The notes under the pieces are model-generated. The model had not been told where the DNA came from, made no database searches, and worked only from the letters and a program-made list of their open reading frames with translations. 64,000 bases of DNA from Psammoneis japonica (lineage: Eukaryota): the NCBI GenBank assembly GCA_008632985.1, contig QPGO01000012.1, positions 558,001-622,000 on the forward strand. The letters run 5' to 3'. Positions 23,638 to 64,000 of this stretch are shown in pieces (the first letter of the stretch is position 1; each line of letters starts with the position of its first letter). The translations under genes and the position numbers were made by a program.

Positions 23638-23755
23638 AGCTAAATGAATAGTGTAAAACGTTAAGTGTCATTTCCACTTCGACACAGAGACAGCTATATG
23701 ATTAGTGCAAATCGTTAAGTGTCATTTACACTTCGACACAAAGAAAGCTAAATGC
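23638..23755 (+). repeat. Two ~55-bp tandem copies inside a TpA-retaining island
   Basis: gcta.atga.tagtg.aaa.cgttaagtgtcattt.cacttcgacaca occurs twice. Confidence 0.8.
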
Positions 23756-27775: not shown

Positions 27776-28041
27776 GCACGCACGCATGCCCACGCGCGCG
27801 AACAACACGTCATTGCGGAGGACCGACAGACCTCCTCATGGATTGAGATAGAAGAAGCAAAAAGCAAAAAGCAAAAGCAAAAAAGAAAGCGAAGCAGCAA
27901 CGAGCTGTTGTATCTATTAATAACATCACAGATCAAAGCCCTACGCTCTTTTGACTATCTTTTGCTCTCTTAATTCTCTTAGAGAGTGAGCGATAAGCAT
28001 ACAAATACTTTTCTTTTTTTTAAGAAATCGACAGAGATACC

Positions 28042-29357: not shown

Positions 29358-29412
29358 TAGTGTAGGTGTCAATTTTCATTCTAAAAAAGTTAACTCGGAT
29401 CCATGTCGCCCA

Positions 29413-35303: not shown

Positions 35304-38300
35304 GAGTTGGGTGTGCACAGCGCACACGACAATGGCTGGCACATGGACTCAACATGGAAAGTGCCGCCAACTGCGTGCATCCATGGAGCTGCACCCACCA
35401 ACTGTGCCCTCCAACCGCACCCTCCAACCACATCACAATTGCACCCACCAACTGCACCCTCCAGCTGCATCCTCTCCAGCTGTGCCGTCAAACTGTGCCC
35501 TCCAACTGTGCCATCAAACTGCACCCTCCAACTGCACCCTCCTGCTGCACCCACCAACTGCACCCTCCAACTGCAGCACCATCAAACTGCACCCTCCAAC
35601 TGCATCTTGCAGCTGCACCCATCAAACTGCCTGCATCCTCTGACTGCACCATCTAAGTGCACCCGCCAACTGCACCCTCCAGCTGCATCCTCCAGCTGCT
35701 GCACCCTCCAGCTGCATCTTTTAACTGCACCCATTGTGAGCTGCACCCAACAACTGCACCCTCCCACTGCACCCTCCAACTGCACCATCAAACTGCACCC
35801 ACCAACTGCACCCTCCAACTGCATCATTGAACTGCGCCCTCCAACTGCACCCAGCACCAACTGCATCCTCCCACTGCACCATCAAATTGCACCCTCCAAC
35901 TTCATCTTGTGCATGCTCAGAGCAGGTGAACCATTGGCACTGTGGGTCCCAACCCTTGAGCAAATCCAAACTGGCATGACAGGCACACTCCTGATGAGCG
36001 CACAGACCATCACCACGGTGCCATTGCAAGAAATTTGATCAAATGTCACGCTGATGATGGCAATTGTTGCGATGCCATGAAAGTCATCTAAACCTTCATT
36101 TTTGCAAGAACACATTTGACATGTTGTCAATTGGTGTCTGTTTGACAGGCATCCAAATGCGTTCTCCACAGTTTTGATTGTGTGGTGAGTTGTTGACAAA
36201 CACACTGATTCAGTTGTTGCATGCAGAGTCACACGTGCATTCTGGAGACAGCTCATCAAAGTCAGACAGATGATGCCAGGACTGTTCAAGTGGAAGAAGA
36301 ACAATGTGAGAAATTGAGGATTTGGGATGCCAGGAGGAAGTCGATGCCGCCAAACAAAACAACTGACCATGTGTCGAGGATTCAGGAAGCCGGCGTGGCA
36401 GTGATGCCAATGAGGCCAAACAAAACAACTCACTTTGCCTCACAATTTTGGCACATGATGTGCCCCAATCAACAGCCGTGCTGCATGTGTGTGGAACATG
36501 TGATGTGCCATGCTGTCCATTTTGCTTTCTCACAAAGTCAGTTCAGAATTTTGACATGAGGTGTGGGCAGCAAGTTGCAAAACATGGTCTTTGGGTAACA
36601 GCAGTTTGAATGTGCTCCAGAATGAGTGTGTGAGTGATCAGGGCACAGTCTGCTGGCAAAGTGCAAGTCATCTGTGCTGAACAAATCATCTGCAGCCTTC
36701 TCTTTGTTGCAAGCAGCAGGTGCAGCACCCCCTTTTTCATGCTCTGCTGTTGTGAGTGCATGACCCACGGGCTTGAACAAGGAAGAAAAGCACTGCTTGT
36801 CCCCCCCTTCTCATTTTAGATGATCCACAACCCTGAAAATGATGCAAATGAAGTCATTGCCAACCACGCCATGCATGCCTTCTGTTGTCTCAACTGTTTT
36901 CTGTTCCAGATCCTTGCAGTCGCAGATGTTGTGAAGCAAACCAAGGGACAAAAAGATGGAATTTTGCTGACTCAAGAGGGTCCTGTCTTGGACCTTCTTC
37001 AGCAGATCCTCTGTGTCTGGGATTGGAAGACAAAACATGCCCGTGTGTGGTGTTCCCTCTTCTGTGTGTCATTTTCTCAGCATCCAGCCTCGTGCAGATC
37101 TTTGGCCATTTTGTTCATGTGGACCTTGGAGGTGACTGCCTGGGGCTTGCAGGTGGCCAGAAGATGAAGAGCATGGTTTCAACAAAAGGCAAGCAAGTCA
37201 TCTTGTGTGTGCTTGATCATTGCAGGTTTGGTGGCATGTGGTTCATTGCATGCCTTGGGACTTTGGTCATTGCTTCTGTTGTTGGAATTGAGCAAGTGAC
37301 AAATCTTGTTGCTCAACGCCTTGTCCCTCAGCTCTTGGGTGGCAAACAATGGGGCAACAGATGGGTTGCCAGAAACTGAGAGTTTGGCAATTGTGTGGTG
37401 GGCCACATCCTTTGGTTTGAGGGATGGGTTGTCCTGTTTTAGCCTCTCTGTGTGATCCTTAACCAGTGGCAGCAAACCTTGGCAACAAGTGGAAAGCATG
37501 TGGTCAACCCTGCACTGTGATCTTGGAGGATGCAACATTTGCAGTGCTCCTTGCGGGGAAGCATGATCATCTTGGCTTGAAAGGGACAATCTTTGTCAAC
37601 CTTGTAGCTGTGTGTTGTCATGACCAGCTGCAGCAGGTCTTGTCTTCATAGAAGCATGTTGTTGCATTGGTCAGTTTTGGTGTCTGGACCAAGAAAATGT
37701 TTTGCCTTGTTTACAGACTTCATGAGGTCCCTGGGAATGAGGTCCAGGGTTGGAGAGGAATCATGATTTGGACAGGAAGGTGGCTTGGCATTGGCCAGGC
37801 TGTTGGCTGTGTCTGAGAAACACAACTCGGGTGGAATGGCTTCTCTCCCATGAGCAATAGAATCTCTGTCCACAGATTCTCTGTTGTGGACAACAGATGA
37901 TGATTTCTTTTTTAGGGAATCATCAAAAATGCCAGCAAGCAGCTCGTCACCCCTTTGTCTTGAAATGCAGGCTCCAACACAGTGGACGTGCTCAGCAAAT
38001 GCCTTGAACTCTGGAGAAAAATGAAATGATCCTCATTGCTGATCTTCCAAGCCATGACCACAAGAAATGAATCTTGGACAATGCCAGGACCCACGCCTTT
38101 GGCCAGAGCCCGGATGCGGGTTGCGGGAGATGGTGGGTCACTGTTGCTGGGACCAGACATCAAAAGAATGGTTGAAAAGAAAAACGCCATGGCAGCTGTG
38201 CCAACATGTGGTCAGAGAACACAAAGAGCACCCCAGGGTCTCTGAGCTCAGTTGCATGACAAAAAGTTCCCCGCCAAAACCTGAGTCCCACAAGAGCTGT

Positions 38301-39940: not shown

Positions 39941-40323
39941 TACCGTACAAGTATGGGGACATACCGAATGATTTTAGCCAGTGGCTAAAATTTTGTGTAG
40001 ACACATACCAGGTTTGTACGCTGGTATATTTTCTACACAGAAAATATTTACTATCCATTTTACTGAAACTATAAATGTCATATCTGTAACGGTTTGCTGC
40101 TAACTATAACGCTCGTTAATATAAAATATATAGTTTTTAAGCGTCTAAAAATAAATACAAAAACAAAAAACTACAAATATATAGTATGTATATAAAAGAA
40201 AACAATGGGGTAGCGTTAAAAGGCGTTATCATTAAATATATCGTATACCAGGTGAAATGCGTAGAATTCTACGGGAGGTTTTTAGCCACTGGCTAAATTT
40301 ATTCGGGATGTCCCCATACGGTA
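39941..40323. mobile_element. AT-rich MITE, ~40-bp TIRs, TA-flanked (Tc1/mariner-like)
   Basis: gtatggggacataccgaatgattttagccagtggctaaaa (from 39951) matches the reverse complement of 40280-40319; outer TACCGTA/TACGGTA; no ORF. Confidence 0.8.
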
Positions 40324-40463
40324 ACTGCCGATGCCGATCGACCACGCATCGCATCGACAACGAAAATGCTGTAGGGCCCTAAAGCATCGCGAAGCTGTCT
40401 GTTGTCTGTGACAACATAATTCGGGCGACAACAAGAGAAAGGAAAAAGCAAGGGCAAATCAGA

Positions 40464-42397
40464 ATGTCCATCAGCTCTTTTCTCAAGAAAGGAAAGTTGA
40501 GCGGCAAGAGCGTGTCTCGACAGAAAAACATGTCGCGTTGCAGTGGCTTGCCGGGCATGTACTCTGTCATTGCATTGTTTATGTTCTTTTGCGTTGCCTG
40601 GATTGTTGTGACAACGTTCACTCCAGAACCACACGGACTCCTTTCAGAAAACTGTCCTTGCGAAGGCGTTGATCAATGCATCTGCGCCAGAGAAACTGTG
40701 GCAGCTCTCACAGCGTTTCAGCTGTTCTGCCTGGCTAATTCCAGAGTGGCCGCCTACATGCTCTATCCTCTATACCTCGTCATGTTTCTTTCAATGGCAC
40801 GCAACCTCTGCAGCTATCTTCATCATACGGTTCTTGCCGAGTTTGTTCCCTTTACAAGCACGCATTCTCTGCATTTCTGGGCCGGCACAATGATGGCGTT
40901 GTCATTATGTGGCATGCCCTTTGGCATCTAATCCGTTGGGGTGTTCAAGACAATCTCTCATTTCTCGTTGAACATCAAACGGGAATCACTGGCCTTGTGG
41001 CTGTCATTATAACGCCATTGCTCGTCTGGCCAATGCGCCTGAAAATGTTGCGCAAAACGATTTCCTTTGAAATACGAAAGCGGATACACTATTTGAGCTG
41101 GCTCTGGGTTGCGGCCTTGTGCTTTCACGCCCCAGCACAAAACGTCTTTTGGATTGTTGGGTCTTCTGTCATAATTTATCTGGCAGACTGGTTCTATGGT
41201 CTCTTCCGTTCGACTCATCTGGCTAGATCAGCGCGTTTTGTGAGACTCGAGTCGGCTGTGATGATTCGAATTTTAAAGCCCCAAGGGTTCTCGCTCAGGG
41301 GCTCTGGAGGGTATTGCTACCTTTGTGTCCCCTGGATTTCAAAATACGAATGGCATGCATTTTCTGCGTATATTGATCCAGTGGATTCCAACTACATTTG
41401 TTTCTGTATCACAGTGGCCGGTGACTGGACAAAAAAGCTTCACGACGAGGTCCACGAGCCCATCTATCGCCGACTCTGGATAAATGGTCCATTTGTGTCT
41501 CCTTTTGAAAACGCAGATGTTCAAGACAACACCATTTCGATTGCCAGTGGCATTGGCATCACTCCTGCTCTTAGTGTCATCAAGTCTCTCGCCGACACTC
41601 GCAAGATGCACTTGATTTGGATTTGCCGTGATGCAAGTCTCCTAGAGTTTATGCTTGACTATGGTGCACGGTTTGATGACGATGCCTACACCTTTATCTT
41701 TTACACCGGAAAGCGTGAGCTTGTCTTTCGTCGGGAAGTGCCATACAACGTATTTCTCCTCAAAGGCCGACCCGATCTTGAAAAGATCATCACCACGCTC
41801 ATTCATGCTTCCGAAAACGATGACGGAACTGACGTGCATTGGTACAGAGAGTTGGATGACAATGTCGAAGATATCGAGAGTGCTTCATCCTCAGTGGAGC
41901 ACCAGTTCTACACCGAGATGATTCGGCTTCTCCTGACATATAGTGTCGAGGAATTGTTCAATGCCGCCGTAAGGAGGTCGCACATGAACGAACGAGTTGT
42001 CTGCTTTGATGGGCTCAAGGCCCTCATGAAGGATTTGTTTGTTCGAAAGTTCTCAGATGATCAATTGCTTGTTGTTTTCACTCGGGTTGATGAAGATAAG
42101 ACTGGCACTATCGACTTTGATGAGTTCAAGACCTTCATTGAACAAATGGAAGCGGATGCCAAGAATGCAAGCAAAAGTCGGCGCAACCTTTTGGAAATCC
42201 CTCACTCCGAGATCCGCCGTCAAATCCGAAGAGAGTCAAATCAAAGTGAGGGCAACAGAGTGCAGGATGGTTTCATTCAAGATCCAGACCAATGGCGACT
42301 CATGTACTGTGGAGGAAGCTCCCAAGTTGTGGACATACTTCGAGACATCTCCAAGAGGAAAAAGATCCCTCTCTCTCTTGAGAGTTTTGAATGGTAG
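40464..42397 (+). CDS. Ferric reductase/NADPH oxidase-like flavocytochrome with an internal EF-hand; apparent frameshift ~40890
   Basis: Heme His pairs (HSLH, HALWH, IHY..FH), FAD motif EWHAFS, GDWTKKL, GPF, IASGIGITP, LIWICR, YCG and C-terminal ESF; EF loop DEDKTGTIDFDEF. Confidence 0.85.
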
Positions 42398-42574: not shown

Positions 42575-45500
42575 GCCTGGAACTTATTTTGTTCAGGAAC
42601 AGTCACTGGAGTGTGCATCTGTTCAGGAGAGGAACAGTCACTGGAGTGTGCATCGTGGAGACGCTGGTTGCATTCCCCTCATTTCCAGCAAACTCGTTCT
42701 GGTGTCTAGCCCTGACAGTTGATCATTGTCTCCTTCAGTTCGTCCATGACATGATGCAACAGCAGCATCTGTTTGACACGTGCAATGAGAAACCCACCAT
42801 GTTTTGCCAAAATGCATTGTTTCCAGCCAACATCACACCAGTGCAAAGTTCCCGACAACTTTTGGGGTCACAAATGGAGGGCCGCCTCAGTCACAGAGCC
42901 ATCACTAAAACTAAAGCTTGACTCTTGCAATTGTCCGTGCAACAAGAAAGGTGCCCCACAAAAAGTTGGCTTTGTTTTGAAGCCCCCCTGCACACCACAA
43001 ACTCCCACTGCACTCTTGCAAGACATTGTTGCAAAGAGCAGGAAAAGGATGATGCTCACATCTTGTGCATTGTGTGGCTCTGGCAGTGAGGGTCAAAGTC
43101 TGGCCAATGCTTCAAAAACATGATTTGAGTCCATCAGATTATGCGAGGGCCGCCCACAGCACAGCTGGTGCCTCGGCATTTGACTGGAGGGGAGCCAACC
43201 CCCTTTTCTCAATGCCAAGACAGACCACAACATCAAGGCAAAGCCCCAATCTATTTCATTTTGCCTCTTCAATGCAATGGCAGGCTGAGCAATCAACAGA
43301 AACCAAGCAACTCATCACAACCAAGAACTTCCCCCCCCTCCCCACTTTCAGATTTGACACCTCTGTGGAGTGGCCAAGAACATGGACAAGTTGATGGCAG
43401 AGCTGAGTGGAGCTGTCCTGGGTGTTTCTGTGGAGTGGCCCAAAATGATGTCAGACACTGGCTGCTTGCACGCCTCTTGGAGGCAAGCTGACAAGGGCTC
43501 CCTGCATGACATTCACCCAAAGACAATTTCCATGAATGAAGTTTTGAGAAGCATGGAGCACTGTTCTGGGGAGAGTGCCATGTCTGTTGCAAAGATGTCC
43601 TTGGGAGTGCAAGGTCAAGAGTGCATTTACAAGCTCTGCTGCATGGGAGACAATGTTGGCTGCCACATTTTGTCGGGGATCTGCAGCAACAATTGCCGCA
43701 AGGAGCAGCTGCTGGCAATTTCATCATCATCACACCAAAAAGCAGTCAGATCAATTGTTTGTGTGATGTTTCCAAATTGCTTGGCGCTGTTGTGTTTGCA
43801 CACAGCATTGCAGCTTCATCATTGCCTCGTTTGTGGTGTTTCTGGCAAAGTTGCTTCAAAATGGAAAAGCTGCACAAAACTGGAAAACCACCACTCTCCC
43901 AACATTTCCCACAGATTCCTGGGGGCACTGCACAAAATCAAAACAATTTTATTTTTCATTGCAAAGAGTTGGGTTTCACCAGAGACTGTTTTTTTTTTTT
44001 TTACAGCAAGAGTGGATGCTGCATCTCTCGAACCAGGGCTGGCTCCACAACAAGAAAATGTCTCCAACTGTTTTGTCTTTTGAATGACAAAACAATTGAT
44101 CACTGTCTTGGGGAAAAGTGCAAATAATTGCAAAACACCACCCTTTTGAGCTGCACAAGTTGCTGAAGAAAAAGATGCAATTGTGCAGAGAACCAGACTG
44201 GCTTTGTCTTTGATGTGCTGCTCTGATGGCAAAATGTGCAGGGCACTTCAATGCATGATGCATTTGCTGCCTTGTCCTTGAGTTGTGTGCTGCTTCAGAC
44301 CCAACAATGTTGATGAGATTGCTTTTCCATCTCACTCAAAACAACATCCAGATGACATGGTGCTGACAACACACATCAAGACATGCTCTTCCACCCTTTC
44401 AAGAGGAGGGGCTGAAGCCAACAAATGCCCATTGGAGTTTGGCATGTCACAATTCTGTTGTTGCAAAAATCAACAACATTTGGTTGACAATGCCGCAGTT
44501 TTGTGAGGTGAGCAAGATGCTCCCCTTGTCTTAAATTCCTTCATTTTGCTTTTTTTTGTGCTGTTGGCAAATCTCAGCTTGCACACTTCCTTGCAGGACA
44601 TCAAATGTCACCCAATCATTTTGCACTCTTCCAACTTTATGTGAAGCACTCACATTTGAAACTTGTGTGAACTTGAGTTGTTGTTTTTGTGCTCTTGTGT
44701 GCAAGTGGGGTTGTTGACTCTCTGTTCTTGGCAACAACAACACATGTGTCAATTCAACAATTTTGACCAATCTTGCAGTGGTCATTGTTCTTTCTGTGCT
44801 GTCAGAAACACCAAATGTGTCTTGCACACAATCATTTTGATCTTCAATCTGCATGTTGAACAAATTGACAGAAATTGAAGAGAAAATGGGTGGAAGAAAA
44901 CAACAACTCCTCACTGCTGTTTAAATGGCAGATGAGTCTCCATGAAGAGACCATTGCAGGAGCTGAAAGACTGGTGTCATGATGTTCTTGGTGCTGCTGT
45001 CATCATTCTTGTGAGCCAAGTGGCTTGAAAGCAAACTGCATCATGCATCACGCACAGAACCAAGAGCACACACAATTGTGCACAACAAACTGAAATCTTG
45101 TTCAAATCCTGTCACTCTCCAGTTTGTTTGAGGAGTCCACAGCAACAGATTCAAAGTCTCATTGACTGGAGGCCTTGGGATTGAAGTTCCAAAACATGAG
45201 GAGATGGAGAAGATTCCAAACCTGGGAGCAAACCCAGTGTTTGCTGAGTGTCGCATCTTGGACAAGCATCCACAGACACATTGGGCATGGTCTAGATGGC
45301 CTTGATGGGGTGCTGCATAAAAGCTGAAGAGAGACATGACAGTCGCAGTGATGTCAATGTGACCAAGCAACACAGCCCATTGCAGAGAACCAACTGGGGA
45401 CTGAAATTGATGGATGCCATTGGGTTCCAGCAGTTTGGAGGTGTTGAGCTTGGGGTGGTCTCCCTTTTCAAGAGGGGGCAGCACGCCAGTGCAAGGCTTC

Positions 45501-48500
45501 TCCCCAAAAAGGCATGTGTGATTCTCAACCATGCATTCAATTTACTTGTGAGGAGCAAGGCACAGTGTGCCATCAGAGTCACCAGAGAAGTCACACCCAA
45601 GGTGAAATTCCAGTGGTCCAGTTCCCTTGAGCTTGAGCTTGTGTTTCTCCATGAGAGTGCCAACAAAAGCCTGGGGATCTTTCACAGCAAAGGCCAGATC
45701 ATCTGCACACACTGCCACACATTTGCAGTGTTTGCCATTCCAATGTAACCAGATGTTGGGTCTGGAGCACACGGGAAGAATCCCTCAGCTTGCAGACAGT
45801 TGGTGAAATGCTTGTGCCACCTGAGACCGGAGCTGCCAAGACCATGCAGGTCCTTGTGGATGACAAGGATTTGTCCTTCCAAATCTCCAAATTTGGGACC
45901 TGCAATGATGCACAGCTTCTCCTTGGTCATGACTTTGAGGCAGGCATTGCCAACGTTGGTTGCCCATGTCTCCAGCTCATTGAGTTCAGCTGGCTGGGAA
46001 AATCATCAGTTGGAGGCCACGGAGGGACACTGCACCAGAATGGATGCTGTTGATGGGCATGTTGGTGAGTGGTCTGTCTCAACAAGTCATGCTTTGTGCC
46101 TGCCATCATGTTTGACATTGTAGACTGGGTGCACGTGAATCTTCTTGTGTCCTGCTGGGGCACTGGAGTCCTTGCAGTGCCCACAATCTGAAATCATGGA
46201 AGACTTCATGCTTGCCCAGCTGAGTCATCTTGAGATCCATTGCTTCTCCCCACTTGGGGTTGCCATTGCACTTGTCAAGGGCTGGGGTGTGCTTGCAGTC
46301 CCAAGGTGCTTCACATCCGCACTTGCAGCATGGCGCAGTGCAAAATGAGTGGAGCTTGGCTTGATTGGCCATGCGGAATGGCTTCTTCTTGTGCCGAGCT
46401 GTTGGACAAAAGCACCTCCATCCATCAATTTTGAGCAGGCTGTGCTCATGTGCATAAATGGCACAGGTGACAAAATCATCCTTGGCAACAATGGCAAGGG
46501 GTTCAGATGTGATCTCCTCACTTTCCCATTCAAGAAGCATGGCGTTGTAGCTTGAGCCTTTCCAAGAGGGGTCATGAGGTCTCAACAGTCCTTTGTGTGA
46601 GACAATGCACCAGAATTTCCAGATGGTGGTGTCCTCATCTTCGTGCTCCATGTGATGAACAATGTTGTTGCAGGCAAGGATTTCCTTGCATTCATTTCAC
46701 AGCATTGATGATGCAGGCTCTACAGTGCTGTCCATCCTGTTGTGGCTTCATGAGGAAGGCACATCCAATGATGTCATCAGGGTCAAAGACTGGCATCTTG
46801 AGCATCCTGATCTCGTTCTCATCTGATGAATCCAGAGAATCCTTGGAGTCATGGTGGGATTTGATGATGGGTGTGCAGCAGACTTCCCATCAGGAGGATT
46901 TGGTGGCCCATATGTTCAGCAATGCCAACAAATCAACCGTGTGACTCACAGGATTCTGATGGCTGGTCAGAATTGTCCAGATGGCTGTGCACAGGTTCCC
47001 ACCATTGGAAATGGAGGAGGGGACTGATGTTGGGAGTGGATCCAGACAGCACTTTGGTGGGAGTGTGCCAGCAGAGCTTGGCAGACACCGTGTGATTGAG
47101 CACAAAACACATGCACATGAGAGCAAGGAGCCAGGTGCAGGCTGGGGAGCCAAAGCAGTCCATGATGGTGTTGGCCATGTTCTTCACAGTTTGGTGGCAG
47201 CATTCAGCAAAGTTCTGGTGCTGTTGATGGGTCTTGCTTTGCCAGCTGGAGATGAAAAGGGCACGGAGGATGCCAAGAACCTTGTTGCTTGACTCAACTT
47301 GAGCAAGATCACTGATTGGCTCAGACAGAGCACTGCAGTTGCAAATGTTGTCTTTGAGTGCAATGACAAATGCCTTGTCCATCTTGGTGACACATCCAGA
47401 GTTGATGGCGGGAGTGTTGGAGCACACTGTGTCAGTGGCAACAGGTTCATTCCATTGGTGGACATTGAGGGCTGGGTTGGGTGACTTGCATGCCTTTTTG
47501 AGGTGTGTGCTGGCAGGCATGCAGGCACATTGGGTCATAAAATCAAAGGTGCGGCAGACAGTGTCCTTTGGGAGGAAGCCAAAACAGGGGTGCAGCAGGG
47601 ACTCACAGTTGGGATCCCAAGGTTTGATGGTCATTGAGGATGGAGTCTGCAAGCATGGCATCATTCACAACATGGCGGTGGCAACAGTTGCCAAACTTGT
47701 CAAACAACAGGTTGGTGGCAGGATCATCTTGGAGGTCAGAGATGGCATTACACCATTTCTTGTTGTCAGTGGACTGGCGGTCAAGCACAGATGGGTCCCA
47801 GGTGTCATTGCCAGTGAGGACAACATGAGGCAGATTGTCCCATTTGGAGTTGGTGTGCAGGCACATGGCAATGTGTGGCAAGCCACCTTTGATGTTGATG
47901 GGAATGACACAGCCATCAATGGTGATGATGTGCTGCAAACTGTTGGGAACCTTGACTGAACAGTCATTGACACTGTGCTTGTGCTGCAAGAATGGATGGT
48001 CTTGCCTTTTCCAGTGCAGGCCCACTGGTGAAGGATGGCAATGGTGGGTCTGCATTGTGCGTGGATGACACCACCGGCAGTGAGGACAGGAATGACAACA
48101 AGCTGGTGGTTGTCAATGCCTTGCACATCAACCTGCTGATCAGTGTGCACAATGACACAAGCACCATTGCCAGCGATTCTGCCATTGTCACCACAATCTG
48201 CTAGAGCACCCGCGGGGGAGTCAAGTTGTGGGTCAACGCAGAGCAGACAATGTTGTCATCATTGACATGGCAATGAGTGTGTCCATTGATCTCAATGTCA
48301 GTGGCAGAGCCAGGTGAGGACTTTGAGCCAGGAGGGGGGTTCTCACCAGAGCAGGCCAATGGGGGCTTGTCAAGTGAAAGAAGACATTGTAGATTGCCGG
48401 GTGGCAGAGGCTTGCACTTTGTAAGGTGTGCCAGGATGGGGTTGTCATCCATCATGGTGTTGGCAGGGTTGGGTGGTGCGGGAGCCAATGCCAGGTCATG

Positions 48501-51500
48501 AGTGTTGGCAGACAAGTTAACATCGCCATCACTTCCTGGACAGAGGTCATGAAGGTTGACAGCCTCTGACTCATGGTGGTTGCCAGAACAGGTGGTGCAC
48601 AAGCCAAGGACAATGGCCTTGCCTCAGAGATCTGGCAAAATGCAATGCCGCTGTTCTTTGGTGAGGCTGGAGCTGTGAGTTTGAGAGGCACAAGCCTGAA
48701 TGATGTCAAAGTCACTGCCAATGTTGAAGAATGCATCATTGTCAGGGTCATCAGGAGCCAGGTCATGGGTGCAGATGGCACAGTGTGGAGTGCGGGAAGC
48801 CATCTTGGGCATGAAAGCACTGTCACACTGTGCTGCTGCAGAAAGCAGGAGCCTGCAACATTGCTCGCAGGATGGGCCAGTGTCATTCTGCATGCAAACT
48901 GTTTGGCTTGGTTCTTGATGGAACAAAGTTCTTCAACAGGATGAATGGCCTTCTCCAGCATGACACGTTTCTGGCCTGCAGAGAAGCAGTCTGCAGCCAG
49001 GATCAGGGCTTTGCACTTGCAGAGTTGGTCTTGCCAGCAATGTGTGAAGACCTGGGTGGAGCCCTTCCAGGTGCCATCACCAAGACAAGCGGTGGCAAGG
49101 AATGTGAGAAGGGCAATTGAGCAAATTGATGCTTCCCCTTTTGAAGCTGCTGTTGCCACCAAAGTGATGCTGTGCAACTTGTTTGGTGCTGCACCCTCTG
49201 CTGTTGTCAAAGAAGATCCCTTTGGCCTGCATCCTCCACTTCCAAGAGCTCTGCTGCCATGTGAACCCCTTGCAACACATGACAATGTTTTGCAACTCAG
49301 GAGCACCAGCTTTTGCCAGAGTCCATGGTTTTTTGCTCTGTTTTCAATGCTGGATTTTGTTTGAAGAAGTTTCAACCTGACTTTTCCCACAAACTAAAGA
49401 AAGGAGACCAGGACAAAGAGATCTGGAGGGGCAGATTTGCACCTGACACCTGACCAAATGGCTGGTTGGTGCTTGGATTTTCACTGTTGGCTTCAAAGCA
49501 ATGAGCAATCATGCTTGTTGGAAACTGGTGTGCATGCTCGCTGGTGTCAAGGCAGTCTCACCCAAGTGCTTGACTCCATTTTGAGGTGCTGCTCAGAATG
49601 CGGTGCAGCTTCGGTCTTGCACTTGCATGATCCATCTGCACATTTTACAAGATCACAGATGTGTTGGTGGTTTGTGATGGTGACCACCCTCCCTCTTGTC
49701 TTGCAGATGACATTGATTGGTTGGAAGTTGATGCTGCCATTGATTGTGGCAGCCAGCTCAACAAGATTCCCAAATCCAACAAGGGTGTGAAGCACCAGAA
49801 CAAAAACAATTGCTGTGACATTGGTTGGTGTGGCAGTCAATGTCAAAATGCCAATCATCCAGATGATGCCCATTTGCTTTCCCCTGCACTCTCTGAGCAA
49901 CTTGGTTGTGCTCCCAACACCAAGCCAAAACAGCTCAAAAGCCACATGCATCCTGGCTGCAACTGCGCCTTGGATGAAAGACAGTTGCAGTCCATTTGTT
50001 GACCCCAACAACCCAGATTGCACTGAGGAGTTTGGAAATGCACTGCATCCTGAGTGCAACACCAAGAATGGCAGGTGCTCCAGCCACAGTTTGTTTTGAA
50101 TCATCTTGCAGTTGCCATGGGGGGGACTTTCACAATGGTGTGATGAGCACAATCTGTGGCATCTCCAAGATTCTGCCAGAGCCAAGCAGTGGCCAGGTTG
50201 TGTGCTGCAGCATCAATTGCCAGAATCATGTGGCCACAGATGGGCTGCACAATCACACATTTCAAAACCCTTTGCTTGATGGCATGAGCTTGTTTCCAGC
50301 TGTGACAATTTTGATGAGTCTTGGCATCACCTGGGAAACCATTTGTGTGATGGGGACATGGTGGAGTGGATTCCAGGATTTTCTGTTGGCTTGTGGTTGC
50401 AAAATTTTCATTGCCCAGAGCTCCTTTCTGCAAAGTGCAAATTCAGTTGCCACACCCAGCAAACAACTTGAAATTGCTTTCTCAAAAAGGTGGAGCCATT
50501 GCTGTCAAGGCAGTGCACATGAAGCCATCAGCGTGGACATGTGCCATCACTCTGCTGACTTCTGTGTGCAACTGGCAGTCTGAATCCATGGCCAGCTGTT
50601 GTTGCTGCAACAACATCTTGCACAGGTGCAGCCATTGTTTCCAAATCATGTGCTTTGCACCACCAAGACAAGGAATTGCAATGGCTGTTCTTCAAGCTGT
50701 TTCTGCTGGCTTGATTTTTTTTTGCTGTCTTTCTAAAAAGAGTTTGTGTTGTTGTTTTTTTGGTGCACCCCACAGCCTGGCACAAGGCATCATGCAGTCT
50801 CAGCATGCACTTCTTTTTTGTGGACAACAATTGTCAACAATGGCCACCTCTTTTCCCATGTGATGTTGCTCTGTTGTGCTCTCATGAGAGAGTCCCTGTC
50901 AATGTGGGTCCTTCTCTGGATTTGAAGAATGCAAAAGAGAACACTCCACCAATGTGGTCGACACAGCCATTTCTGCTGCATCAAACAAGGAGTTGACAAG
51001 CATCCCTTTCAATGAACCAATGGAGGAGTTGGACATTTGACATGTTTCCTCCATCACTCTTGCTCAAGTGAGACATGTTGAAAGAGACAACTGATGTGCT
51101 TCAACCTCCAGCAAGCAATGCTCAATGCAACACCTGCAAAGAGAATGTCAACTCTGGTGTTCTTTGTGACATTCCTCAACCAGCTGTTCCCAACAAGCCT
51201 TGCAAGTCAGAGTCTTCAAGTGTTGAACTCATTGACAAAATGGTGGCCATTTTTGACAAGAAGCGATGAAAGTCAAAAACATGGTTGACTTTGGCAACTG
51301 TGCAAGTGTTCTTGTTTGTCACATTTCATTTTGCATGGCTGATCATTTGATGACAGAATCTTGTGTTCACATTTTACTGCTTTGCTCTAAAAAAGGTTGA
51401 CTCCACTTGATGACAAGGAGGAGTCTTCATTTGCAGTTTGCTGTTTTGCTCCAAAAAAGGTTGACTCCAAGATGAGATGGTGTGTTCAGCCAAAATCATG

Positions 51501-54500: not shown

Positions 54501-56610
54501 TTCTTTGTTTTCTCACTGCTTCTGCAGCAGCTTGACTTGGCATGTTGTGTCTGCATTGGCTGGCACTTTCATTGTGGACACAGTCAAGGTGGGTCTCTCA
54601 GAGGCAAAATCCTTGCTTTTCACATCTTCCAGGGATCTTCCCAAATGTGTGCCTTGTTCATGCTCCTTCTGTGTGCAATGGGTGATCTTCTCCTTGAGAT
54701 GTCTTCACATGCAGCATTGTGAGTGTCTTGCTGTTCAGCAACCAAGGATGGATCTTCATCTCAGGATGAAAGTGCTTCTCAGTTGGTCTTCTTCTTCAGG
54801 TTAGAGGACCTGCAACTCTTGTCACAGCCACAACCACAACCTTGGCCTCAGTCGTTTGTTCTGCCACCTCCTCTGCAACTCATTTTGCAGGTGCTCAGCA
54901 TTTCATTTAACTGTGTGCAGGTTGGTGTCTGCAAGCACCAAACACAGTGCCAGCAACTCTTTGGAGTGAATGTTGAACTGGCAAGAAGTCAATGTTGCCA
55001 AAAGAGAATCCTGTTGGGCTTCCTGTGTGGCTCAATGCACTTGCCTTGGTAAACTGCAATGGCTGTGGGTTGCCAAAGTTGTCACTGCAAACTGTGAACT
55101 TGCATGATGACAGGCACCTGCTGACACCAAATGTCAAATTGCGTGTGAGCCAAATGATTTGTTGTTCCAAAGAGTGAAATAAAATGAGAGGCAAGAGATT
55201 GATGATGACAAAATCTTGCTTGTAAAGAGTCACCCTGAACAAGCCACATCAGGAGTCAAAGTTTTGTTTTGAGCTGGCTGAAGATGACAGACAGACTCTG
55301 AAACATTGTTTTTGGATGATCACTGCAACTGTGAAAGTTGGAAATGAGCAGCTTGCAAGCTGGGAAAGAACATGACAGCACACCACAATCAGATGGCTGG
55401 TTTGGGGCGTGGGGTGGAGCAGCTCACTGTGTTGACCATTTGGATTGGAGCCTCTGCTGGCTGCTGGCATGTCGTTGACATCCCAATGTTGGACATGCAT
55501 GCCAGACACAACCTGCTGACTCCAGTCTTTCAGTGCAAGCAATGACCAAAAAAGGGTTTGCAGGTGGCAGGACTCAAAACCCACATACAAGCAAAAGTGT
55601 GATTCAAAGTGTCAGCCACTCTGACAGAGTCATCTCTTCTGGGAAATGTGTTCGTTGTGCATTGCTGGACTGTGTTGCACATGGATCCTGCATTTTTTGA
55701 AAAATGTTTCTGCCTTGCTAAGTTTTGGCTGGCAAAGTCACAAGGAGGTTGGGCCCAGCTCCTGACAGAAGAAAAGAAAGCATGACTGTGCTGTCTCAAC
55801 ATGCTCACAAGCAAACAACTCAAAGAGCCGCAAGGACTCGCCTTTCTGTGGATGAAGCATCACAGCCTTGCTGCATTGCTGCCACATGTGGAGTGGTCCA
55901 GCATTGCTTTTAAAGAGGATTTGATCATTTTTGAGCTGCTCAGGTGAGGTGCAGATCCACGAATGTCCGCCATTCTTCTTGCCTGCTTCAAAAGTCCATC
56001 TGCAGAGTCCATGCCAACCAACAACCAGCCAGCTCCTTCTTTGAAGGTCTCATCAATGCTGGAGGAGTGGGGTTGTTGGCCATTGTCAGATTGTCAAGAG
56101 CCATCATTGCCATCTTTGCTTGGAAATGTGGAACCTTTTCAGCCAAGTTGACACACCAATGCCACTGGACCAGGTTGCAAGTGGACCTCTGCAGCATGGT
56201 GGTTGGATCCATCATCCTGATTTATCCAGCCAGTGGTGTTGCTTTGCAGGTGGGGACAATTCAGAGCAGAAATTCATCATGCTCACAAGAGTGTCCTAGT
56301 CAAGTGGCATCATCTTGCGGTTGTGAAGAAGCTGGGCATTGTCTGCTGAAGGAAGAACTCTCATTTCGTCAAGTGTCAACAACAGTGTCTTGATGCTGAG
56401 CATGCAACTCTCGCAATGGTGCATCTGGGATTCTGGAGCACAACGTTGCCGATCTGTGAATTCTTCTGTGTCATGTTTCCTGAAAACTGAACCAGAAAGG
56501 ATTGGATGCGAGCTCGTTCGCAAAGAGTCAAGCACGCTCGTGCCTGCAGTGTTTGGCAGGATTGTTCCCGCCGAAAGTTGTGACAGACCGGTCAGAGAAA
56601 AGAAGCTGCA
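42575..56610. other. TpA/CpG-depleted block D (old copia plus unclassified relics)
   Basis: TA and CG are nearly absent over 14 kb. Confidence 0.85.
44866..49380 (-). mobile_element. Older, deleted and heavily mutated copy of the same or a closely related copia family; 3' LTR 44866-45114, 5' LTR not found
   Basis: Collinear fragments: CLGDGTWKG, KKACKSPNPALNVH, QQHQNFAE, EPLAIVAKDD, VCADDLAF, LEKGDHPKL; LTR starts tgacaggatttgaacaag. Confidence 0.9.
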
Positions 56611-56818
56611 TGCTACAATTTTCTTTTCAATTCAATCCCCAGTTTGGAGTGGAATATAATTCCTCTACGGTCTGTTGGATCTCATAACGAATTTATTTCA
56701 TGTTTACTGTTTGACTTCAGTGTGAGGGCGAGTAGTCTAGTCTAGTCTAGCCACTGGAGGGAGCGGTTGCGAACGTGCTCCCTGTCACCTGTTTCTGAAA
56801 TGTCAAAATCAATAATAC

Positions 56819-57862
56819 CTAGTTTGGCACCTTTGAACTTTCAAGAGCCTCATGTGCTGCATGGCCGTTTGACAGCGGAGCAGCACTTCTTGTTGTTGTA
56901 GTTGTACCGGTATTGAGATGCTGCCACTGTCCACCGTGACGACCATTATTGCTCGGTGGTGCTCGAGTTCCAAACGACGAAACATGAAATCGTCTAGCCG
57001 ACAAGTAGTAGGTTCTCTCTAGCTCTGCCACCATGTCCCAGTATTGACGAGCAATGGCATCGTCAATACGGACATCTTCGTAGTCCACGACCGCGTGAAC
57101 TTTGTGGTCGGGTCGTACCGAGCTCTTGAGAATCGCGTCCTCGACACCCTCCCGGATGGCTTCGACATCATCTTTAGTTTTGATTTGTAAACCACGAAAC
57201 TGCAAGAAAAGAGTGTTTGTTTTGGTATCGTACGATGTACACTTTTGCGTAATCTGTGCTGGAGTGATTTCAAACCGTTCGGGAGATAACCGCGGACGGA
57301 GTCCCGGCAAAACATGACGTCCCCATTCTTCATTGACGAGTTCGGCAACACCGGTATACCAAGCACCGACTGCCGTAAAGAATCCAAAATAACCCGCGGC
57401 CGTCTTGACATTATCGTTTCCAGTAGACGTGGCGGCAGCCAGCAAAAAGAAAGTGATTGCCAATAGGGCAAACACCACAATCAAACAGATATTTTTCCGT
57501 AGCGTAATTACGAAAAAGCAGCACGTCAAAATGCCCCACTGAATCAAATACAGCGTCTTGCCCGTGGTATAGTTCACTTGCCCGAATTCGGATTCAAGAC
57601 TTTCGTTTTGCAACATGACCAAACCCCAGCCGAGCCAAAAAGCACTGTAGGATCCAAAGACGGCAAAGGAAAACGAAGAGCCCTTTATGATTTCAAAGAT
57701 TGCCACAAGAAGCTGCACGAGACCACCAAAAAAGATGGCATAACCCACTACCATTTCTTCGAATTCCGCTTCGGCCCAACCGGTATCCACAAACATGAGC
57801 ATGGCTGTCGTCATGCCAAAGGAAAACAAACCGAGTGGAGCGGGATTGCCAAGTGAAGACAT
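56819..57862 (-). CDS. GPR1/FUN34/SatP (AceTr) acetate channel with an extra ~110-aa C-terminal soluble domain
   Basis: NPAPLGL motif, FGSYSAFW and six TM segments. Confidence 0.9.
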   Translation of the reverse strand: MSSLGNPAPLGLFSFGMTTAMLMFVDTGWAEAEFEEMVVGYAIFFGGLVQLLVAIFEIIKGSSFSFAVFGSYSAFWLGWGLVMLQNESLESEFGQVNYTTGKTLYLIQWGILTCCFFVITLRKNICLIVVFALLAITFFLLAAATSTGNDNVKTAAGYFGFFTAVGAWYTGVAELVNEEWGRHVLPGLRPRLSPERFEITPAQITQKCTSYDTKTNTLFLQFRGLQIKTKDDVEAIREGVEDAILKSSVRPDHKVHAVVDYEDVRIDDAIARQYWDMVAELERTYYLSARRFHVSSFGTRAPPSNNGRHGGQWQHLNTGTTTTTRSAAPLSNGHAAHEALESSKVPN

Positions 57863-58660
57863 GATGTTATATTTTAACGGAAAGGTGCACGGTATGAATT
57901 TCGGAGTAAAAAGAGAAAAAAAAAGATGCTGGTCTGCGACGAAAAGGAAACAATTCTTGTGAGTGCTTCAGGAATGAATCAGGACGTTACAGCACGACTA
58001 CACATGTGAATTGAAACGAGTTCTTTTCCAAAAAGTGACGGAACGACAGACGACCGTTGTTGGTCTCAATAATTTAACTACAGACTGCATTCTGCTCCTG
58101 AAATAGCGAGTTTGCATTTTTGAGAATTGCAATGCAGTACCACGGAAGAATTAGACTTACCGAATAAACGAGTTGACAAACAATGAGACAGACTCGGGAG
58201 CCGACCGAGGGCAACGAGCATTCTGTTTTGTTCTGGGCGATGGGTTCGCATTCAACTTGAAATTCCAGAAGAGAACAGAACTTTCCAGTACTGAATTCAC
58301 GTAGGTTTCTACGGCAACAGCCGATGGAACATCGAGCGCGCAAATCGTGCGTAAAATAGATGATGACCCGGATGTCCGTGACGACGCCATTCCCTTTCGC
58401 GCGACCAAAACACGACTTGAGCGCCCATCACACTCAAACGAACCGCGTCGTCCATCCATCCATGCGAAAAGCGTTGGAAGCCAGGATGAATGAACCAAAC
58501 ACGAGAATATCGGAGACATTATGAAGCCCATGTGCGTGGTTAAAAGCAGCCCAGGGCAACAGCAGCCACAGGAGAATGCGTGCGTCGAGAGCACAGTGCA
58601 ACAGGTGCATCATTGGCACATTGAGATTCCCGCCTTTTTTTCACTTTCTCCAAGGGGACC

Positions 58661-58831
58661 TGACGTCACGTAACGTCAATCTAATCAAAAATGTTCGTCA
58701 ATGTTGAATGTGTTTCGAACGAACATTTTGAATTTTATCGTACGCTGAATACTTTCATTCAATTCCTACACTCTTCCCCTCGTAGTTTAGACATTTCGTT
58801 GTTGCCGGTACCAATGCGTTGAATATGACGT
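58661..58831. promoter_or_regulatory. Candidate bZIP/aureochrome-type sites (TGACGTCA 58661, TGACGT 58826) and an 11-bp inverted repeat (58688-58729) in a divergent promoter
   Basis: Motifs read directly from the sequence; function inferred. Confidence 0.3.
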
Positions 58832-59014
58832 GAAAATGACGCATGATTCAAACCTCCGAATATTTGAATTGAACCTCCAATTGCCCTCGTACGCACGCTG
58901 ATTGGCGGATGGCACCTGCTGCCCGAACTTGCATTTTCAAACAGACACCGCGATCCATGATGCGTGCCCGTTGGCATTCTCACAATCTCTTTTTGAAACA
59001 ACAACAACATCATC

Positions 59015-60082
59015 ATGTCAACTGCATCTCTCTCTCGCTTGATTGAATCAACAAACATGGCAACAACAACAGCAACAATGCCAGAACCAGAATTGATGCG
59101 ACTGATTCGTCGTGAGGATTGGAATGCTGTGCTTGCTAGAATTGAATCACACGGTCACGAGGCGCGTTCTTGTCCGAAACGCGGTGCTAGTTTGCCCGTA
59201 CTGTTTTGTGTGCTATACCATCGTCCTCCTCTTGTTGTCGTGCAAGCTTTACTCAAAGCTCATCCTCAAGCACAGTACCAATGTCATTCTCACGGTAGAA
59301 TAGGTGATGTCCGACACGAGAACGCCACGGGCTGGACACTGGCGCATCAAGCAGCACGGTATGCTCAAGATCCTCAAGTGTTGGAACTCATTCTTCAGAA
59401 TCATCCGGCCTCGGCTTGTATCATGGACGACAAGGGTGATATTCCTCTGTCGGTGGTTTCCAATGTTGGTACTCTACAACATGCAAATAATAATGAAGAA
59501 CAACAAAGAAGCGCTCTTTCCAAAGCAATTTTACTAATCAAGGCCATGCGGTTTGGAAAGCTCCATGTTGCTCCCGACAAGTTTTTTCCGATTCACGATT
59601 TGATTGAATAATCGATTCATTTGCACAGTATGGAATTGATTCAGTATGCGGTGACGCAATACCCGGACGAATTGCAACGCATCGATCCAGTAAAAGGCAA
59701 CACACCTCTTCATGTGGCGTGCATGGCTCCTCCCGTACTCCAAGTCGGATGCTGCTGTGGTGGGTCCTACGAGGATGCCGTCGACTGTCTTGTGGAACAA
59801 CATCCCGAAGCGGCCAAGGTACGAAACCGTGATGGACAATTGCCACTCACGTTGGCACTGGAGCATGGCAAGGACAATTTGGAAATGTTGGCCCAAGCCC
59901 ATCCCGCTGCCGTGTTGGAAACGACGCAGAGCGGAATTTATCCATTCATGCACGCGGCGGCTTTGTGCCAACAGAACAGTGTCGTCGACGAACGAAACGT
60001 CGAACGCCTTTCTTGTGTTTATACATTATTGAGAACTTGTCCCGAACTGAATCGATTCCATCAAGAAGAAGCAAAAGCATGA
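59015..60082 (+). CDS. Diatom-type ankyrin-repeat-like protein with an in-frame TAA at 59609-59611
   Basis: GWTLAHQAA, GNTPLHVAC, GQLPLTLA and YPFMHAA; both ORFs are in the same frame. Confidence 0.7.
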
Positions 60083-60949: not shown

Positions 60950-61770
60950 AAGGATCATTTCGAAATGCATGTGAGCTTTGGAAAGGATGCCTCAAGATGA
61001 GCATTTCCTTTGGCTTGGAGAAGCGCTCAACTCGGTCCCTTTCTAGAAGGTGCGCCCTCACCACAGCCACTGTGGAACCTGTCAACCACATCCATGCCTT
61101 CAAAATTACTTTGCCAAAAGGGCCAAAGCCCTGTTTGTCTCTAGAAAGCCATTGCCTTGCTCTCTTGTGTTGTTGAAAATCTGTGGCGTGCGAGTGTTGG
61201 GGCCTGCAGTGGCAAAGATGACAGTGCCACGAGCATTGCCAACTTTGACCGGATCATCTTTAATGCTAGAAGTGCACCACTTGGACTGCACAGAGGATTG
61301 CCATCAATGCCAAACTGAGAGACAAAGAGCCAGGCAAAACCCAGAAAAGCCTCTGCATCCATCCCAGAACCCTTCTTTTGTCAACTCCTGCAAGGACAAA
61401 AACAGAGTGGCTTGATGCATTCTACCACATTTTTGTTGTGTGCCTCAAAGTGCTGAATGCCAAGCGGGGCCCAATCTAGATGGAGCTGGATCTTGATGGT
61501 TCCCGCGCACTCTTCGAGACAAACCATCCAAATGGTTGCCCACCTTGAACTTGTGACACTTCCTTTTCCCTCGTCCGCAATGGCAGGCTTGACAGTTGAA
61601 ACCACTGCAGCCGTGAATGCAGTCTCCACTGCTTGCTTTTCGGCAGGACATGGTGCTCAGTTCAAATGATGATGTCCGAGAAGTGAACCATGCCGCGTGC
61701 AGAAAGCCGCGTGCTCCACACATGGAGGCAACAAGAATGGCAAGAGAGAACAGATTGCAGAACATCATTG
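60950..61770 (-). pseudogene. Cyclophilin-type PPIase pseudogene with signal peptide, inside TpA-depleted block E (~60400-61780)
   Basis: WAPLG, FVSQFGI, IKDDPVKVGNARGTVIFATAGPNTRT.QIF and EGMDVVDRFHSGCGEGAPS.KGP; stops and frameshifts. Confidence 0.85.
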
Positions 61771-62198: not shown

Positions 62199-64000
62199 TC
62201 AGGCACTTGAGCGAGTATAAAGCAAGCCAGAGTCGCGAAGATTAGCGTAAAGTTTACGGGGAAGGTCGCCTTCAATCTCTTCTGGCAACTTAATTTTGCC
62301 TCCGTGCTTTGGAAGGTCCAGCGATTCTTTGTAGCCTCTTGCCAGCATGACAGACTTTCGATCCTTCAAATTGCCCACCTTTTCAGCCAAACTGTACAGT
62401 TTTCCAGTCAAAGATTGCATGTGACATTGGCGCTCAGTCTCTCGCATGACGTCCTGAGCGGCTTTCAACCAGTTGTTGTTGTGTGGCCCGGGTGTACTCT
62501 TGACCAGTTTCGAGTCCAACTGGGTGTCTTTCGCGCGAGTCACTTGCTTGACACACTCAAGAATTTCTGAGTCCCAACATGTGAAGTAGGGGTCTCCATC
62601 AATATCGCCTTGAGCAATCTGCAGGGGAAGAGGAAGCGAACCATCACGTGGTCCCCCGAAAATTACAAAGCCGAAAGGCAACGAAAGAAGCCACTCCCAG
62701 TCTTGCACTTGCATGGCCTTGGGCTTCGTATTGACAATAGAGACCATCCGTCCATCGGATGCTTCGAGGCACGGAAATCGGGAGATGAAGAGCTTGTCGT
62801 GTTTGCCTTGCTCGGTTCCCATACCCGTTACAAACATGCGTCCCTTCGGTAAGGCACCGGTTGGGTCTGCAGCCCCGAGCAAGCTGGCATGTTTCAAGCC
62901 TTTGATGGTTTTCTTGTTGTCACACCTCTTGCAGTACTTCGTGATAACATCGCTCGGAACACCAAGGTTTTCCCACAATCGAATGATCATTTTCGATGGA
63001 GCCTGACTCTCATTCTTGAAATAGCTCATTGGAGGATCTTTTGCTTCAGGGTCCAGTTGGCGTCCAATCAACTTGTTCTTTTGACTGGGGAATGTGTTCT
63101 TGACAATCATACATGACCACTTTTCGTCTTGTGCAACCTCTTGAGAACGCGGAACTTTCCGCATGGAACGAGGGAGCTCAATGTGATCAATGTTCTGTTT
63201 TGGAAAAAGTATTCCCTTGACACAGCCAAGGTGTGGAGAGAACACACGAACTTGCAGAACAGTGCAGTCATAGCGCTTGGCCATGGACTGGGGCATAAAG
63301 CCACAACCATCGTTACCTGGTTGGTCTTTTGTGACTTTGATGCGCGGCAGATCATCGCCATCTATGATCATTTTCTTGTTGGACTTGCTGACAATCATTT
63401 CCAGTCTTGAGGATGCCTTTTCGGGCGAGAGCTTGCCAAAGTTGGCTATCTTTTCCAATTCCTTTTTCAGTGAAATACTTTTCAAGCCTGGACCACGCGT
63501 GGCAACGTACCATATGCGTATTTCCTTTGCCTTTCGTATATGCCAGGAAACGTGATTTGAGCCATGGGCCTCTTTGTTGACTTTGGTTGCAAGTAGTTCA
63601 TAGGTACGGTCGTTAACCGTAAATTTCGTTGGAAGTTTGGCATGCGGTGCTTTCAGAGAGAGCTTGGCTTCCTGTAGGCGACGTCCGAAGTAGTGACTTG
63701 CAAAAGATACGTCCATTTCCTCTTCTGGAGGATCAAAGATTATCAACCGCACTTGCATGTTTCCAGCCACCAGTCCTGAGTTTCCGTCAGGAATCGCCCA
63801 CGAGGGACGAGTTTCGGCACCTTGATTTGCTCCTTTCGTCGCCTTACGTGCGACCCGGTTGCCTTTTACCACTTTCTTTTGTTGTTCGAACTTTGTCGCC
63901 TCCTCCTTGGCAGAATCATTCAACGACTCATCAGGTACCCATTCGTCGTGTTTTGCTGAGAACCCTCTCCAGCGAACCTTGTACTCTTTTGTGCCATTGG
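62199..64000 (-). CDS. Chromodomain-fused, compact cellular-type RNA-dependent RNA polymerase (5'-partial)
   Basis: DGCG, QVR..KG, RFPCL and GDIDGDPYFTCWD (DxDGD at 62592-62606). The frame is open to the window edge and reads NGTKEYKVRWRGFSAKHDEWVPDESL upstream of the called start. Confidence 0.8.
   Translation of the reverse strand, partial: NGTKEYKVRWRGFSAKHDEWVPDESLNDSAKEEATKFEQQKKVVKGNRVARKATKGANQGAETRPSWAIPDGNSGLVAGNMQVRLIIFDPPEEEMDVSFASHYFGRRLQEAKLSLKAPHAKLPTKFTVNDRTYELLATKVNKEAHGSNHVSWHIRKAKEIRIWYVATRGPGLKSISLKKELEKIANFGKLSPEKASSRLEMIVSKSNKKMIIDGDDLPRIKVTKDQPGNDGCGFMPQSMAKRYDCTVLQVRVFSPHLGCVKGILFPKQNIDHIELPRSMRKVPRSQEVAQDEKWSCMIVKNTFPSQKNKLIGRQLDPEAKDPPMSYFKNESQAPSKMIIRLWENLGVPSDVITKYCKRCDNKKTIKGLKHASLLGAADPTGALPKGRMFVTGMGTEQGKHDKLFISRFPCLEASDGRMVSIVNTKPKAMQVQDWEWLLSLPFGFVIFGGPRDGSLPLPLQIAQGDIDGDPYFTCWDSEILECVKQVTRAKDTQLDSKLVKSTPGPHNNNWLKAAQDVMRETERQCHMQSLTGKLYSLAEKVGNLKDRKSVMLARGYKESLDLPKHGGKIKLPEEIEGDLPRKLYANLRDSGLLYTRSSA

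Follow-up and report, generated by a model that had tools for sequence, protein, structure and literature searches.

In S. pombe, RITS is made up of the chromodomain protein Chp1, Tas3, and Ago1, and RDRC is the complex of the RNA-dependent RNA polymerase (RdRP) Rdp1. Among other cellular RdRPs, RDR2 and QDE-1 are taken here to be two-double-psi-barrel enzymes, and activity on single-stranded DNA templates has been reported for QDE-1. In diatoms, the histone marks H3K9me and H3K27me (methylated lysines 9 and 27 of histone H3) cover transposons, and little has been established on the coupling of small RNAs to histone marks and DNA methylation, there or in other marine algae. Published counts of putative RdRPs run from one to three per diatom genome and come without domain architecture (PMC2724275, PMC3145265, PMC3155517, PMC4247016). 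Here, an intact nuclear gene at the right-hand end of a 64,000-nucleotide stretch of Psammoneis japonica DNA (GenBank assembly GCA_008632985.1, contig QPGO01000012.1, positions 558,001 to 622,000; the whole analysed stretch is called the window) was analysed, whose product, designated P0001, matches a chromodomain at its N-terminus and a compact RdRP over most of its remaining length.

P0001 was read from a stop-to-stop frame of 599 codons on the minus strand, which has no internal stop, is open at the window end, and begins with residues NGTKEYKVRWRGFSAKHDEWVPDESL. Since TpA is strongly depleted (window-wide observed/expected ratio, o/e, of 0.25), long open reading frames (ORFs) are cheap in this window, and it is homology with its relatives, and not length, that makes the case for this ORF. 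Five motifs were located (DGCG at residues 230-233, QVR at 249-251, KG at 261-262, RFPCL at 407-411, and GDIDGD..F.CWD at 464-476), all of them at alignment columns that the family keeps invariant or nearly so; the DxDGD loop is present with all three catalytic aspartates, and exactly 130 residues follow D469. Measured against family alignments of 134 and of 90 sequences, P0001 retains all 11 invariant positions and 49 of the 52 nearly invariant ones, with conservative replacements at the other three (L201M, L466I, A555G). The ORF has a TpA o/e of 0.40 and a CpG o/e of 0.83; the window's decayed blocks reach only 0.03-0.09 for TpA and 0.04-0.25 for CpG. The dinucleotide profile of the ORF matches that of the other genes. 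An earlier, sequence-only reading of the window had described an unmutated gene whose frame continues to the window end with a chromo signature, a basic linker, the RdRP motifs, and a tail of ~130 residues, and all of these were recovered on the minus strand. Plus-strand ORFs overlapping within 62211-63006 were rejected as genes, being unsupported and of the spurious long kind expected under TpA depletion.

Domain assignment was carried out by a Pfam scan of P0001, which returned Chromo (PF00385; E 1.5e-6, 28.5 bits against a curated cut-off of 25.1, with the first ~13 profile positions falling beyond base 64000) and RdRP (PF05183; E 1.6e-27, 96.9 bits against a curated cut-off of 23.8), and at E up to 1 gave no third family except a weak MSL3 chromo-like match. 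A search of PDB sequences with the N-terminus placed CBX2 at the top (E 2.3e-4), followed by CBX4, CBX6, CBX5, CBX8, and MPP8. In the alignment, 'VRWRGF' of P0001 lies on 'VKWRGW' of CBX2, so that W10 and F13, which are taken to be the second and third aromatic-cage positions of the chromodomain, pair with two tryptophans. By these matches, the N-terminus of P0001 is an HP1/Polycomb-type chromodomain.

The closest homologue, P0003 (636 residues), is colinear with residues 1-587 of P0001 (39% identity, E 2e-138), in an alignment that takes in the chromodomain, the basic linker (Lys/Arg-rich over residues ~40-60 of P0001), and the pre-core segment. In P0003 the Chromo domain is complete (residues 15-63, E 1.5e-10) and begins 14 residues past the Met, and the AlphaFold model of P0003 shows strands at 18-27, 30-38, and 43-49 and a helix at 55-66, the layout of a chromodomain, at a predicted local distance difference test score (pLDDT) of only 60-66. 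With P0003 as the yardstick, only ~28 N-terminal residues of P0001 lie outside the window, giving a predicted full length of about 630 residues, of which at least 599 are seen. Downstream of the chromodomain, the only in-frame Met codons are M81 and M95, in the linker and pre-core segment.

The chromo-RdRP junction is spanned without joints by contigs of three public runs, namely X1 (the probable source), X2 (the same sample), and X3 (another organism, a ~92%-identical relative); the labels 'DNA?' for X2 and 'RNA?' for X3 are guesses, and no listed run is on record as RNA. Over 1835 bases, the X3 contig has 137 letters that differ from the window and 6 gap positions (~92% alike), and its insertions and deletions are paired, with sums that are multiples of three bases. 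Codons were compared at 40 of 135 differing places, all in the C-terminal part, where 36 changed codons were visible, 17 of them synonymous and none a stop, which is taken as a modest sign of purifying selection. Downstream of the gene, the X2 and X3 contigs stop at 62173 and 62166, 26 and 33 bases after the stop codon, whereas the X1 contig continues; the two contig ends hint weakly at the end of a transcript. Upstream, the contigs extend past the window end by 835 (X1), 679 (X2), and 459 (X3) bases; if those of X2 and X3 were transcript assemblies, the N-terminal extension would be short, at most a weak hint given the run records. The MMETSP transcript P0158, from the P0051 cluster, covers the polymerase end only, and so gives no transcript evidence on the junction. 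With both Pfam domains above cut-off in one open frame, and the same colinear architecture in P0003, chromodomain and RdRP are very probably carried on one chain, and the earlier claim of a single-frame fusion stands, with a Chromo profile match now behind its N-terminal part.

For the polymerase, an AlphaFold2 model of P0001 was produced from 90 family sequences, with a mean pLDDT of 85.7, a predicted template modelling score (pTM) of 0.83, and values mostly above 90 over residues ~96-590. Foldseek with this model returned QDE-1 (E 7.5e-20), RDR2 (E 1e-15), and compact phage polymerases (E about 1e-7). In VIA comparisons, model residues 78-580 were placed on residues 378-933 of maize RDR2 (Z 22.6, root-mean-square deviation 3.6, 416 aligned residues, 19% identity) and residues 76-577 on 400-1135 of QDE-1 (Z 19.8); phage P32 gp64, presumably a DNA-dependent enzyme like phage P74 gp62, gave Z 16.5 over 350 aligned residues at 11% identity, so that P0001 lies closer to the cellular RdRPs (Z 22.6 for RDR2 versus 16.5) than to the phage enzymes, and its Pfam match is likewise to the eukaryotic RdRP family. 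By sequence search, RDR2 and QDE-1 match P0001 only around the catalytic loop (phmmer, E 0.004-0.015, with RDR2 at 0.004), and the ESM Atlas gave generic RdRP clusters only, with scores of 0.87-0.89, below its evidence level. The aligned ranges indicate that the P0001 core corresponds to only the middle of the canonical enzymes, presumably the slab, the two-barrel catalytic domain, and the neck; the regions without a counterpart are presumably the RRM-type N-terminal RNA-binding domain and the C-terminal head. P0001 departs from the canonical full-length layout, with ~20 model residues past the aligned range and the chromodomain and linker before it. By profile, motif, and predicted fold, P0001 is thus a short-form member of the cellular RdRP family. 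The description of the enzyme as minimal fits a confident model that covers no more than the two ranges given above, and the barrel fold expected of its core agrees with the matches to QDE-1 and RDR2, both two-barrel enzymes.

To place P0001 among its relatives, phmmer was run with P0001 on 1.84 billion representatives, giving 716 matches at E up to 1e-3, of which 476 reached 1e-10 and 268 reached 1e-30. Domains were counted in the best 150 of the 716 matches, with Pfam at E up to 0.01 for 55 proteins and 1e-4 for the others (60 + 35). PF05183 was found in 150 of 150, together with KOW-type or related SH3-like modules in 27 (several under Pfam's own cut-offs), a PTM/DIR17-type Tudor module (PF21743) in 7, Chromo in 3 (P0003, P0029, and P0051), PHD in 2, HA repeats in 2, and an RNase H1-like C-terminal extension in 1 (P0073); the remaining members had no recognised module. 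Residues about 190-520 of P0029 hold four tandem chromodomain copies (by eye) and a Pfam Mtf2_C match (E 2e-10), ahead of the RdRP core, and P0135 appeared chromo-like by eye and fell below the pass at 1e-4. The named members come from the green alga Cymbomonas tetramitiformis (PHD) and the diatoms Thalassiosira exigua (PHD) and Proboscia alata (HA). In a quick, midpoint-rooted FastTree built from 134 core sequences and read for topology alone, P0001 grouped with P0003 and P0004, with P0135 and P0009 adjoining; P0051 and P0029 were placed elsewhere, which puts chromodomains at three or more places in the tree.

Metagenomes were scanned with the family alignment, giving 157 confirmed relatives, from which 80 loci were kept. 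Domain scanning was performed on 24 of the 34 best loci with the frame worked out, chosen for a long single ORF; duplicates (L008, L021, L023) and loci with short or split ORFs (L001, L002, L027, L030, L033, L038, L039) were left out. RdRP was found in all 24, KOW-type modules in 4, Tudor in 2, PDZ in 1 (L015), a weak MBD match in 1, and Chromo in 0. In L029, the Tudor module lies on the C-terminal side of the RdRP core. A search of metagenome contigs for close relatives of P0001 gave 79 pattern matches, none of them confirmed, and single-pattern scans, too weak for distant relatives, confirmed none among 106 stretches of viral contigs and none among 12 stretches of prokaryotic genome contigs. 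Word-based protein searches returned P0002 only, the family-profile version gave 0 of 8000 candidates, and a further search gave 3 matches without useful names. By these domain counts, the chromo-RdRP protein is not unique, and is one of several reader-RdRP fusions within a large family. No description of a chromodomain-RdRP fusion was found in the full-text literature, a search that did not include the likeliest review (Burroughs, Ando and Aravind 2014, WIREs RNA). The combination may already be present among automatically derived database architectures.

The reading proposed for P0001 is that its chromodomain tethers the RdRP to marked chromatin for small-RNA silencing, which is given slightly less than an even chance of being right. 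The chromodomain would dock on methyl-lysine chromatin (H3K9me or H3K27me), the basic linker would provide nuclear import and reach, and the core would turn nascent or chromatin-associated transcripts into double-stranded RNA (dsRNA), which a Dicer/Argonaute pathway would process to small RNAs that reinforce silencing. One chain would then do the job of the S. pombe Chp1/RITS and Rdp1 complexes, or of plant SHH1-Pol IV-RDR2. The best indirect support for such a mechanism is the family-wide choice of N-terminal partners, since Chromo, Tudor, PHD, KOW, and HA are all associated with chromatin or transcription and so speak for a family that acts at chromatin. Several points weigh against tethering. 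The first aromatic-cage position, the first strand, and the start codon of P0001 lie beyond base 64000, and the chromodomain stretch within the window was modelled at pLDDT below 50, as was the linker, the low score of the chromodomain arising because the stretch is truncated by the window end. P0003 has, by eye, a Cys at the expected third cage aromatic, so not all relatives need be methyl-lysine readers. P0001 lacks any counterpart of what RDR2 and QDE-1 have beyond the aligned core, and template choice and product type may therefore differ from those of the studied enzymes. In most of the family, the module is of the KOW type or none is recognised, and the common denominator of the family may thus be RNA or polymerase binding, not histone marks. 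The wider picture, in which marine algae (diatoms and at least one prasinophyte) hold a large, little-described family of compact RdRPs hard-wired to chromatin or the transcription machinery through swappable readers, with P0001 as a one-protein heterochromatin-RNA interference (RNAi) loop, is doubtful, if possible; such a loop would read H3K9me or H3K27me on transposons and make dsRNA on the spot.

The prevalence of KOW-type and module-less members, together with the missing third aromatic of P0003 and the fact that just two of three cage positions are visible in P0001, would also suit an unlikely alternative, in which P0001 acts in post-transcriptional RNAi amplification or another RNA-level process and its chromodomain is a protein or RNA adaptor, or degenerate, and reads no mark. 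Its best chromodomain matches, however, are bona fide methyl-lysine readers (CBX2, CBX4, CBX5, and MPP8), W10 and F13 are retained, the basic linker resembles a nuclear localisation signal by eye, and Tudor and PHD histone readers are found on paralogues. A mainly DNA-templated, QDE-1-like enzyme, which at marked chromatin would use single-stranded or damaged DNA to make aberrant RNA, is considered distinctly unlikely; QDE-1 structures with DNA templates (7y7r, 7y7t) are among the structural neighbours, and the compact DNA-dependent two-barrel polymerases of phages match too (P32 gp64, at the Z given above), but the top structural match is the RNA-templated RDR2, and nothing in the P0001 sequence separates the template preferences.

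That the chromodomain lies outside the mature protein is judged very unlikely. In that case translation or transcription would begin downstream, at M81 or M95, or the chromo segment would be part of a different exon or gene, and the product would be a plain short RdRP, as might be suggested by a start codon beyond the window, by module-less members such as P0004 (496 residues), and by junction-crossing contigs from runs that are not on record as RNA. The P0001 frame is nonetheless open from residue 1 on and homologous over the same stretch, its chromodomain and linker running colinearly with those of P0003, the contigs of all three runs cross the junction without joints, and P0153 (546 residues), a cluster mate of P0004, reaches further upstream, so that short forms may be truncated models. 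Fainter still is the chance that the gene is the cargo of a mobile element or virus, with a chromodomain for integration targeting and an RdRP that is no host silencing factor. The size of the family and its shuffled N-termini, the fusion of P0073 to RNase H1-like domains, and the decayed repeats nearby would all be compatible with cargo; set against them, the gene has no repeat in common with other parts of the window and resembles other genes in dinucleotide profile, Pfam finds no reverse transcriptase or integrase domain in its frame, and no relative was confirmed in viral contigs by the weak single-pattern test. Sequence upstream of the gene was available in the contigs for at most 459-835 bases beyond the window. 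Tethering of the RdRP by the chromodomain is retained as the preferred reading over these four.

The window is a mosaic of gene-like blocks (TpA o/e 0.4-0.66, CpG 0.85-1.0) and decayed blocks (TpA 0.03-0.09, CpG 0.04-0.25, CpA/TpG 1.7-2.2), and the sequence-only reading had put P0001 forward as a speculative candidate guide for a 'repeat mutator'. Two copies of a copia-type element were compared over a 1432-column alignment, in which 67 of 88 counted CpGs of the first copy were CA or TG in the older copy, and 370 differences were dominated by C>T (82) and G>A (80). Decay in this one compared pair of repeats is the ordinary methyl-cytosine signature (CpG to TpG/CpA), for which no dedicated guide is needed. 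Self-comparison of the window gave no repeats common to the P0001 gene and the rest of the window, and, with nothing that ties the gene to the decay, the proposed guide role is unsupported. The one conceivable link is indirect and runs through methylation directed by small RNAs: were cytosines at transposons read by P0001 methylated in this way, the proposed loop would indirectly drive CpG decay of neighbouring repeats. The loss of TpA is extreme, and TpA is rare in both copia copies, the younger included.

Features of the window are collected in the table. The overlapping ORFs inside the GC-rich retroelement are probably a by-product of scarce TAA and TAG stops under TpA depletion. Just downstream of the P0001 gene, the source-run contigs break at 61613/61614, and a 326-base contig from the other organism's run, at higher depth, matches 61585-61634 only, with unlike sequence on both sides, which suggests a small conserved or repeated element at 61585-61634.

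Table. Features of the P0001 gene and of the rest of the window, in window coordinates.
Feature	Position	Strand	Basis and details
P0001 ORF, 599 codons + TGA stop (62199-62201)	62199..63998	-	ORF list and translation; start codon beyond window
Chromodomain, residues 2-39 (PF00385 profile positions 14-52 of 53)	63882..63995	-	Pfam and PDB sequence matches
Lys/Arg-rich linker and pre-core segment, residues 40-95, predicted disordered	63714..63881	-	Colinear with P0003 basic linker
Compact cellular-type RdRP core, residues 96-590 (pLDDT mostly >90)	62229..63713	-	Pfam, AlphaFold2 model, structure matches
Catalytic loop G464-D-I-D-G-D469 (family consensus GDLDGD)	62592..62609	-	Sequence and family alignment
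Short trailer past stop codon	62166..62198	-	Contig ends of runs X2, X3
Copia-type long terminal repeat (LTR) retroelement	9631-16744		LTRs 9631-9901 and 16474-16744 (271 bases, 94.8% alike); RVT_2 14469-16523
Older inverted copy of copia-type element	about 44866-49112		65-74% alike
Decayed blocks, examples	18001-26000, 36001-38000, 42001-56000		
Gene-like blocks, examples	28001-34000, 40001-42000, 56001-60000		
Three overlapping ORFs, 564-735 codons, inside GC-rich retroelement	11395-13620	both	No Pfam match
ORF of 1412 codons in gene-like block	29862-34097	-	No Pfam family at E up to 1e-4
DUF6824 fragment at window start	1-642	+	Pfam
GPR1/FUN34/YaaH family gene	56822-57967	-	Pfam, E 1.5e-43
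Ferric-reductase-like NAD/FAD protein with EF-hand	40739-42394		Pfam
Branch-type glycosyltransferase	28024-29298		Pfam
Tandemly repeated stretches, copies 70-80% alike	35376-35909, 23052-23445		Self-comparison

The natural fusion of a reader with an RdRP would constitute 'Rosetta-stone' evidence that the two activities work together, and P0001 would offer a single, small, and tractable protein on which this idea can be tested. Its short core indicates how small a cellular RdRP can be, which should be useful to enzymology and structural work, and the family-wide swapping of reader modules suggests that the mark or machinery feeding an RdRP differs from lineage to lineage.

Compared with RDR2 and QDE-1 (PF05183), P0001 shares the two-barrel catalytic architecture and the DxDGD metal-binding loop, but only ~500 residues correspond, and P0001 has an N-terminal chromodomain in place of their flanking regions. 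The phage enzymes P32 gp64 and P74 gp62 (~590 residues) are similar to P0001 in size and in their minimal two-barrel layout, and match it more weakly than RDR2 and QDE-1, at 10-11% identity. The KOW-type modules of P0001 paralogues are only loosely reminiscent of SPT5-like factors. Chromoviral Ty3/gypsy integrases follow a shared principle, the targeting of an enzyme to marked chromatin by a chromodomain, which in their case is C-terminal on an integrase, whereas that of P0001 is N-terminal on an RdRP and finds its best matches among CBX/HP1-type domains. In the Arabidopsis SHH1-CLSY-Pol IV-RDR2 pathway, it is a reader of histone marks that in the end brings an RdRP to transcripts derived from chromatin, as is proposed for P0001; recruitment there goes through Pol IV, and RDR2 has no reader, whereas P0001 carries its own chromodomain. 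RDR2-Pol IV structures (7eu0, 7eu1) were among the Foldseek matches of the P0001 model. The proposed logic is the same as that of RITS and RDRC in S. pombe, where an H3K9me-reading chromodomain recruits an RdRP to transcripts of heterochromatin; in that system reader and polymerase are separate and are bridged by Argonaute and small interfering RNA, whereas in P0001 both are found in cis, in one open frame.

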